Source of the DNA: a virus
Virus genome (UHGV): UHGV-0120250
Length of the DNA stretch: 17,104 nucleotides
Strand: one strand, 5' to 3'
Part shown: in pieces, positions 3,631-4,101 of the stretch
Numbering within the stretch: the first letter of the stretch is position 1
Layout of the letters: each line of letters opens with the position of its first letter
Made by a program: the position numbers and the translations under genes
The notes under the pieces: generated by a model
Databases searched by the model: none
What the model was told of the DNA's origin: nothing
The model's input: only the letters and a program-made list of their open reading frames with translations

Positions 3631-4101
3631 CTAATAAAATACCCAATTTTCTGTTTCTTGGTTGTGTCCAAAGTTATATTCAATATCTGGTGTTGATGTA
3701 TCAATATTCTTCATCCCATCGACAAGAGTTGATACGACAGCCAAATCTTGTTTGATCCTCACCAAATGGTATTTTTTTCGACGCAATAAACTTTCAATAG
3801 CAAGTTTCTTCGTTGGGAATGCAAAAGATCTTTCTGCATTTTTTGCTACTTTCTTAATTGCATATCTATTTCTCCTTTGTTTCCATTCCTGTAACCACTG
3901 ATTTGGTGCTGGTTTAAAATTAACAATCCAATGCGCAGGAACCAACCATGCATAATGCTCTGTCTGATGAAAAGCTATATATTGAAGTGCGAATATTTTT
4001 ATCCCATCTTCTTCAACTGTCGCCTGGAATCTCCAGAAAACAGGCATTCCATCATGTTCAGTTTCTGATTCAGGAAAAGGTACGCTCCATGATTTTGTCA
4101 T
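3631..4101 (-). CDS. hypothetical protein, 156 aa, AT-rich moron in the pL operon
   Basis: ORF with GAGGTGA SD 4-5 nt upstream of ATG 4101; markedly AT-rich relative to flanking genes; no recognisable motif. Confidence 0.7.
   Translation of the reverse strand: MTKSWSVPFPESETEHDGMPVFWRFQATVEEDGIKIFALQYIAFHQTEHYAWLVPAHWIVNFKPAPNQWLQEWKQRRNRYAIKKVAKNAERSFAFPTKKLAIESLLRRKKYHLVRIKQDLAVVSTLVDGMKNIDTSTPDIEYNFGHNQETENWVFY

Follow-up and report, generated by a model that had tools for sequence, protein, structure and literature searches.

The gp45/L0079 gene of lambdoid phages: an AT-rich accessory cassette of the pL operon encoding a basic protein family whose predicted fold matches no solved structure

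Background

Between N and cIII, the pL operon of lambdoid phages contains a variable slot. In lambda this neighbourhood holds sieB, ral and ea10, and the gene for the restriction-alleviation protein Ral (66 aa; the Rac counterpart is Lar) is, like that for gp45, an early and dispensable accessory gene of this slot. P22-type gp17, to which RefSeq gives the name "superinfection exclusion protein", can replace or accompany gp45 there. In phages HK97 and 933W the slot carries the genes for gp45 and L0079, respectively; in 933W this gene takes the exact place of lambda sieB-ral. Neither Ral nor gp17 is related in sequence to gp45. T7 Ocr and ArdA are also small early phage or plasmid proteins and are proposed, as we do here for gp45, to bind rather than to catalyse; Ocr and ArdA are highly acidic, whereas the gp45 family is basic and gp45 has no predicted fold similarity to any PDB entry. 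A further point of comparison are the morons of lambdoid phages (e.g., HK97 gene 15), a term whose definition reportedly goes back to Juhala et al. in 2000 (Hendrix); they are likewise discrete cassettes with deviant GC content and their own terminator, located between conserved genes, but the gp45 gene differs in being co-oriented within the pL operon and in having no promoter of its own that we could detect.

Here we analysed a DNA stretch of 17,104 nucleotides (UHGV virus genome UHGV-0120250; "the window" hereafter), which corresponds to a lambdoid prophage early region. A preliminary description of this DNA, made from the letters alone, had pointed to an AT-rich ORF of 156 codons, had noted that lambda has ral and ea10 in this neighbourhood (the lambda map agrees, with sieB in addition) and had proposed that the product might act in anti-restriction or anti-defence.

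Results

The product of the 156-aa ORF is 98.7% identical to HK97 gp45 (NP_037731) and 99.4% identical to 933W L0079 (NP_049479) over all 156 residues, and it matches PHROG 1636 ("unknown function") with E = 1.8e-111, residues 1-156 aligning with profile positions 1-156. As the gene is also syntenic with both (i.e., downstream of N and followed by the same intrinsic terminator), it is the same gene in the same place, and the sequence, catalogued since the 933W and HK97 genomes, is not new. Near-identical "hypothetical proteins" are carried by dozens of Stx1 and Stx2 phages, H-19B also has the gene, and the exact protein of the window is on record in Shigella flexneri and E. coli. Overall, 598 of 5426 complete E. 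coli genomes (approx. 11%) contain the gene, at up to four places per genome, and in 593 genomes the match covers at least 80% of the gene length at 95-99% nucleotide identity. All annotations that we encountered read "hypothetical protein", and we found no functional study of HK97 gp45, L0079, phrog_1636 or WP_000167595 in the literature, including work on anti-defence in lambdoid phages.

The ORF is a real and constrained coding gene. Compared to the HK97 allele, its dN/dS is 0.045, which indicates purifying selection; compared to relatives with saturated synonymous sites, pN ranges from 0.21 to 0.40. Among 18 homologues (57-99% identity), 51 residues are invariant and the N-terminus is conserved as well. 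The GC content of the gene is 36.1%, as compared to 46.1% for the whole window, of which it is the most AT-rich part (lowest 0.5% among all 471-bp windows), and its GC3 is 27%, as compared to 41-53% for the adjacent genes. The comparison with the flanking genes, which the preliminary description had proposed, thus bears out the AT-richness that it had noted, and its good ribosome-binding site is likewise present, with 6 nt between GAGG and ATG (Table 1). As the GC content is anomalously low, these data suggest that the gene was acquired horizontally. The encoded protein is basic (pI 9.07; 18.6 kDa) and contains seven Trp and no Cys residues; reading of the sequence revealed no transmembrane segment or signal peptide.

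Table 1. Features of the early region around the gp45 gene (positions are those of the window)
Feature	Position	Strand	Detail or basis
cIII	3302..3436	-	corresponds to HK97 and H-19B cIII
Second terminator-like hairpin	3469..3488	-	8-bp stem, then TTCGTTAT; terminator scan
Mobile cassette (RBS, ORF, structured 3'UTR, terminator)	3499..4163	-	block common to HK97, H-19B, 933W and other Stx phages
Intrinsic terminator	3501..3526 (stem 3526..3509)	-	stem GCCCTC/GAGGGC, then CTTTTTAT; terminator scan
12-bp perfect hairpin	3589..3616	-	starts 14 nt past stop codon; first 3'UTR element
156-aa ORF (HK97 gp45 / 933W L0079 / PHROG 1636)	3631..4101	-	ATG start
Shine-Dalgarno GAGGTGAG	4104..4111	-	read from sequence
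Lambda-type N C-terminus remnant	4110..4313	-	translation ends ...GVTCVGRQKMKLGSKPLI
sieB (superinfection exclusion B)	4306..4887	+	annotated in RefSeq at E. coli loci with 99.5% identity
Functional N, HK97/H-19B type	4904..5290	-	ATG approx. 5287, stop codon ends 4904; sequence comparison
boxB-like hairpin GCGCTGACAAAGCGC	approx. 5430-5415	-	upstream of functional N
pL promoter TTGACA-17-GATACT	5499..5527	-	with lambda-type oL sequence TACCACTGGCGGTGATA; promoter scan
Terminator downstream of BstA homologue	5734..5713		
BstA homologue, 301 aa	5745..6650	-	PADLOC BstA, E = 2e-105
cI, lambda-type	6737..7450	-	
cro	7551..7751	+	
tRNA gene	15409..15480	+	Rfam RF00005
tRNA gene	15489..15561	+	Rfam RF00005

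The gene lies between a remnant of N and an intrinsic terminator that precedes cIII, an order already recognized in the preliminary description. The C-terminus encoded by the remnant resembles what we take to be the C-terminus of lambda N. Homology with HK97 stops at 4163, where HK97 N ends, and the last approx. 18 codons of the remnant align with the spacer between HK97 N and gp45. Because of this overlap, the data suggest that the cassette was formerly located downstream of a lambda-type N, and the remnant shows where a recombination scar lies, on the upstream side of the cassette. The functional N gene lies farther upstream, and between it and the gp45 gene are located sieB, which lambda has at the same place, and the N remnant, an arrangement that was absent from the preliminary description. 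sieB and N converge, with only 16 bp separating sieB from the stop codon of N, and the transcript from pL crosses sieB antisense before reaching the gp45 gene. In HK97 and 933W, N and the gene are 58 bp apart; in the window the distance is approx. 0.8 kb greater because the convergent sieB intervenes. The segment 4102-4903 is covered to at least 80% in 543 complete E. coli genomes.

The window has a lambda-type immunity region (5499..5640 and 6737..7751; oL1/pL sequence TACCACTGGCGGTGATACT), including a cI that is nearly identical to what we take to be the lambda cI sequence, together with N and nutL sequences that are not of the lambda type, which places a mosaic joint between pL and N. Where lambda has rexAB, the window carries the gene for the BstA homologue, flanked by the lambda-type cI and by pL. 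BstA acts as an abortive-infection defence of prophages. In another locus (L004), a BstA_C gene was also observed upstream of a distant gp45 homologue. The late-regulatory part of the window carries two tRNA genes (55 and 61 bits).

Megablast matches to many Stx phages start at approx. 3499 (just past the T-run of the terminator) and stop at approx. 4163-4194, and the cassette extends 62 bp beyond the start codon on the upstream side. The neighbour downstream of the gene is cIII in HK97 and ea10/ssb in 933W, which has no cIII there, and in H-19B and E. coli O103 ML775 a gp17-like gene is located between the gp45 gene and cIII. As the conserved block has different neighbours from phage to phage, the ribosome-binding site, ORF, 3'UTR and terminator represent one cassette that moves between different flanks. 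The 3'UTR (3527..3630, minus strand) consists of the 12-bp hairpin and a second hairpin and is followed by the terminator, which the HK97 record lists as a "putative terminator" and assigns to gene 45. RNA folding of 3495..3640 yielded a minimum free energy of -45.9 kcal/mol (z = -5.1, as compared to shuffled sequences), and all copies of the 3'UTR are approx. 98% identical. Rfam searches of the whole window, and of 3300-4400 at a permissive threshold, revealed nothing near the gene. The structured 3'UTR could be a stabilising element or give rise to a 3'UTR-derived small RNA.

On the minus strand from pL (5527..5499) to the gene, there is no credible intrinsic terminator (a 5-bp stem inside N was the only candidate), and a sliding C/G scan of this transcript found no strongly C-rich and G-poor stretch (maximum C/G 1.4). 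As neither a convincing terminator nor a C-rich stretch for Rho loading is found over this distance, transcription of the gene before N acts is plausible in the window. In HK97 and 933W, the gene directly follows N and precedes the first strong intrinsic terminator, and expression before N action is likely there, as judged from the arrangement of the sequences. Conversely, the sieB insertion in the window adds approx. 0.8 kb of RNA that is not translated, and Rho termination over this antisense-sieB stretch, which separates N from the gene, could make the gene N-dependent. An immediate-early product, made before N-mediated readthrough, had been assumed in the preliminary description; the position of the gene agrees with this, whereas the timing is no more than plausible given the antisense-sieB RNA. 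A consensus scan of 4102..4300, with weak or non-consensus sites beyond its reach, found no sigma-70-like promoter on the minus strand.

Word-indexed searches retrieved relatives from Enterobacterales, down to 41% identity. An exhaustive HMMER profile search over 1.84 billion representatives (E <= 1e-3) yielded 76 matches, most of them stand-alone proteins of approx. 130-170 aa with 20-27% identity; two long repetitive matches (P0061, 940 aa; P0095, 444 aa) were spurious on inspection. Reciprocal tblastn from a distant member recovered the Stx-phage gene (E = 3e-6). In the resulting alignment of 71 family sequences (termed A2), all 71 members match phrog_1636; the related PHROGs 1636, 13631, 25384 and 28215 are all of unknown function. 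Pfam searches with the single protein and with all 71 members returned only noise, NCBIfam had no match for the query or family members, and no family member carries a fused domain. Short forms include PHROGs 18686 and 37429 and proteins of 86-138 aa, and many of the short forms are flagged "partial" at contig ends.

Among Proteobacteria, genes of the family are located in the early operons of temperate phages and of prophages. In the interpretable temperate loci, the homologue is always in an early operon, usually the one from repressor to integrase, and among small ORFs of unknown function. It follows N in two enterobacterial metagenomic contigs, adjoins xis/int in Pectobacterium, and is located upstream of recT-yqaJ-ssb in Rosenbergiella; operons that contain recE, recT, yqaJ, rdgC or csrA in addition to the homologue were found in Pseudomonas phage Skulduggery, a metagenomic contig (L018), Marinobacterium and Pseudomaricurvus. 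A DNA methyltransferase gene occurs within a few genes of the homologue in six loci, and in Bas81 and NX263 the homologue heads a short operon with a gene for a ParB-like protein. In Vibrio phage vB_Vp_PvVp04_M (5801..6963 of locus L021), the order is Cro-like HTH_26 (65 aa), homologue (149 aa), Phage_pRha and YopX, i.e., the homologue is in a CII-like position; a RecE/RecT operon is divergent. A co-oriented TerB-domain ("tellurite resistance") gene was observed upstream of the homologue in Pantoea phage LIET2 (L010; approx. 2 kb away, with a DNA methyltransferase gene in between) and in metagenomic contig L020 (approx. 1 kb away). Overall, the context of the relatives fits an early accessory gene, and it does not separate counter-defence from a role in DNA transactions or regulation; proximity to methyltransferase and recombination genes discriminates poorly because it is typical of any gene in an early operon.

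An AlphaFold model based on a shallow 18-sequence alignment had a pLDDT of 50.7 and was discarded. Based on the 71 sequences of A2, AlphaFold yielded a model with a pLDDT of 95.6 and a pTM of 0.82. In this model, three long antiparallel strands (19-30, 33-46 and 50-55) are accompanied by a pair of short helices and by one further, short strand (83-86). The long helix (98-130) comprises 33 residues and shows a clean hydrophobic repeat of the 3-4 type, and the C-terminal tail is ordered and carries the conserved pattern Y-x-F-G-H-N-x-E-T-E-x-W-x-F. The predicted fold can be described as a beta-meander of three strands onto which the amphipathic long helix packs, with a conserved aromatic tail at the C-terminus. 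A PDB fold search with this model found no match among solved structures, which include the anti-defence proteins Acr, Tad, Acb and Gad. Sequence and profile searches of the PDB gave best E values of 0.24-0.27, and the proteins concerned (reticulocyte-binding protein and twinfilin) were rejected as chance matches. Conversely, Foldseek comparison with the viral predicted structures in BFVD revealed 12 matches at E <= 0.001, all of the described ones being an "Uncharacterized protein", from phages of Erwinia, Achromobacter, Delftia, Sinorhizobium, Rhizobium and Tenacibaculum; the matches extend to phages of Bacteroidota. The predicted gp45 fold therefore appears unlike any solved structure, a novelty that relates to solved and not to predicted structures. 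The searches for remote homology and structure that had been recommended in the preliminary description thus revealed no known domain or solved fold, but did reveal a 71-sequence family and uncharacterized fold relatives; the homology to a structural or metabolic phage protein that it had named as contrary evidence was not found. The fold relatives include phiEa2809, the N4-like phiAxp-3 and RG-2014, which we take to be lytic-type phages; their occurrence in such phages argues against a role specific to lysogeny.

In A2, only G33, T47, K87 and A101 are near-universal, and the core motif is K-x-x-K-x(3-4)-R-F-A-F-x-T-K-x-x-A-x(3)-L-x-x-R-K-x-x-Q-L-x-H-L-K-R-D. Position 46 is commonly E in the family and Q in the subfamily studied here. 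The pI is above 8 in 89% of the 71 members and below 6 in none (median 8.9), and the members have a median net charge of +4. Basic residues are conserved at R24, K83, K84, K87 (97%), R92, K98, R108 and K109 (86%), and these Lys and Arg residues are concentrated on strand 83-87 and in the initial turns of the long helix (98-110). A2 contains no conserved constellation of acidic, histidine or cysteine residues. As no invariant constellation of a catalytic type is present, an enzymatic function seems unlikely for this family, and gp45 is likely a binding protein, the ligand of which would be a nucleic acid or an acidic partner.

Comparisons with known anti-restriction and defence proteins were negative. 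In hhalign, A2 matched lambda Ral with a probability of 0.1% (one aligned column), lambda Ea10 with 0.13% and the H-19B P22-type gp17 with 1.2%. PADLOC-DB 2.0 contained no HMM with a significant match to the 156-aa protein; a hit to Cas1_II (E = 0.015, 12.6 bits, 45 residues) was considered noise. A DefenseFinder survey of EHEC phages (2025) reported methyltransferases, Ral and Gam as the only anti-defence genes (PMC12502783), and several phages of that survey are among the matches for the gp45 gene. Overall, neither homology nor fold matching linked the gp45 family to a defence system or a host target.

Discussion

The data show that the gene is real, that it belongs to a cassette and to a protein family, and that its product is basic and without a known fold or domain; when it is expressed, how it binds and whether it serves counter-defence are inferred. 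The reading that we favour, tentatively and at less than even confidence, is that gp45 is an early protein that acts by binding and not as an enzyme, in host takeover or in counter-defence. The gene would represent a self-contained accessory cassette in the variable slot between N and cIII, transcribed from pL at the onset of infection or induction, with transcripts stopping at the terminator of the cassette unless N acts. The protein would work by binding through the Lys/Arg face formed by strand 83-87 and helix 98-110, and may thereby disable or divert a host component at an early stage of infection. The gene is dispensable for the lambdoid life cycle, since lambda has sieB, ral and ea10 at this place and other E. 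coli prophages have gp17-like genes, DUF2528 or other ORFs. A bolder version of this reading, which we consider rather unlikely, would make gp45/L0079 the prototype of a widespread, unrecognized early-phage family with a new fold that neutralises host immunity by a new mechanism other than DNA mimicry (e.g., through binding to a defence component that is acidic or senses nucleic acids) and that is made, with N, among the first products in Stx phages. The family ranges over phages that infect enterobacteria, Vibrio, Pseudomonas and Pantoea and over prophages of marine gammaproteobacteria.

The basic character of the family, with its Lys and Arg residues on one strand and one helix, fits equally well with a nucleic-acid-binding accessory of the phage early programme that would aid recombination or replication or regulate early transcription; the recurrence of homologues in operons with recT, yqaJ, recE, erf, ssb or rdgC, the CII-like position in PvVp04 (after a Cro-like HTH and before a Rha-family regulator) and the shared operon with a ParB-like DNA-binding protein in Bas81 and NX263 point in the same direction. 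However, searches of the family revealed none of the known folds or domains for nucleic-acid binding, such as HTH, RHH or OB, no immediate partner gene is consistent across loci, and lambda, with the same type of pL operon, lacks the gene, which can thus not be a core component of recombination or regulation; we regard this explanation as somewhat improbable. The anti-restriction function raised in the preliminary description, either type I alleviation like Ral and Lar or DNA mimicry like Ocr and ArdA, is supported by occupation of the ral slot in 933W and by the DNA methyltransferase genes near homologues in six loci. Nevertheless, the hhalign result excludes a Ral-like protein, a DNA mimic is excluded because the protein (pI 9.1) and its family are basic whereas DNA mimics are strongly acidic, and DefenseFinder did not flag the gene in the phages that carry it (PMC12502783), so that a dedicated anti-restriction role is highly improbable. 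What remains of the original proposal is a broader anti-defence role, for which the position in the N-cIII accessory slot would speak by analogy.

A function in the lysogen would be expected if the gene were a moron of the type described by Hendrix, i.e., expressed from the repressed prophage and beneficial to its host, for example by excluding other phages. The separate terminator, which the HK97 record assigns to gene 45, and the aberrant composition would agree with this, as would the presence in 11% of complete E. coli genomes at up to four places each and the neighbouring sieB and BstA genes, which are prophage-expressed defence genes. Yet the gene is co-oriented with pL inside the operon, no sigma-70-like promoter was detected on the minus strand in 4102-4300, with just 62 bp of cassette before the start codon, homologues elsewhere are also inside early operons, PADLOC gave no match, and typical Sie proteins, unlike gp45, have a transmembrane segment or signal peptide; we thus judge this explanation to be decidedly unlikely. 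The location in the same operon as kil and cIII could also suggest a Kil-like host-toxic early function, i.e., one that arrests growth or acts on the nucleoid or on cell division and so optimises the cell for making phage. Such a function would suit a basic, early and dispensable protein, and the frequent truncated prophage copies could reflect counter-selection, but many of these short forms are "partial" at contig ends, 593 genomes retain most of the gene at high identity and no similarity to any known toxin was found, which leaves Kil-like toxicity very unlikely. A binding protein for host takeover or counter-defence remains our preferred, tentative reading of gp45.

Conclusions

The gp45 gene is common to HK97, H-19B, 933W, many Stx1- and Stx2-converting phages and, among complete E. 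coli genomes, the prophages of approx. 11%. From its position, its product would be one of the earliest proteins to appear upon infection or induction. The first sequence of the gene dates back more than 25 years, and the protein has no assigned function, Pfam domain or structural neighbour. New here are the definition of the family, a confident fold prediction without a solved match, and the exclusion of Ral-like and DNA-mimic mechanisms. Overall, gp45 represents a reasonable, if not exceptional, candidate for anti-defence screens. If a role in counter-defence or host takeover is true, gp45 would represent a new family across many phage groups and could bear on the spread of Stx phages between E. 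coli strains.
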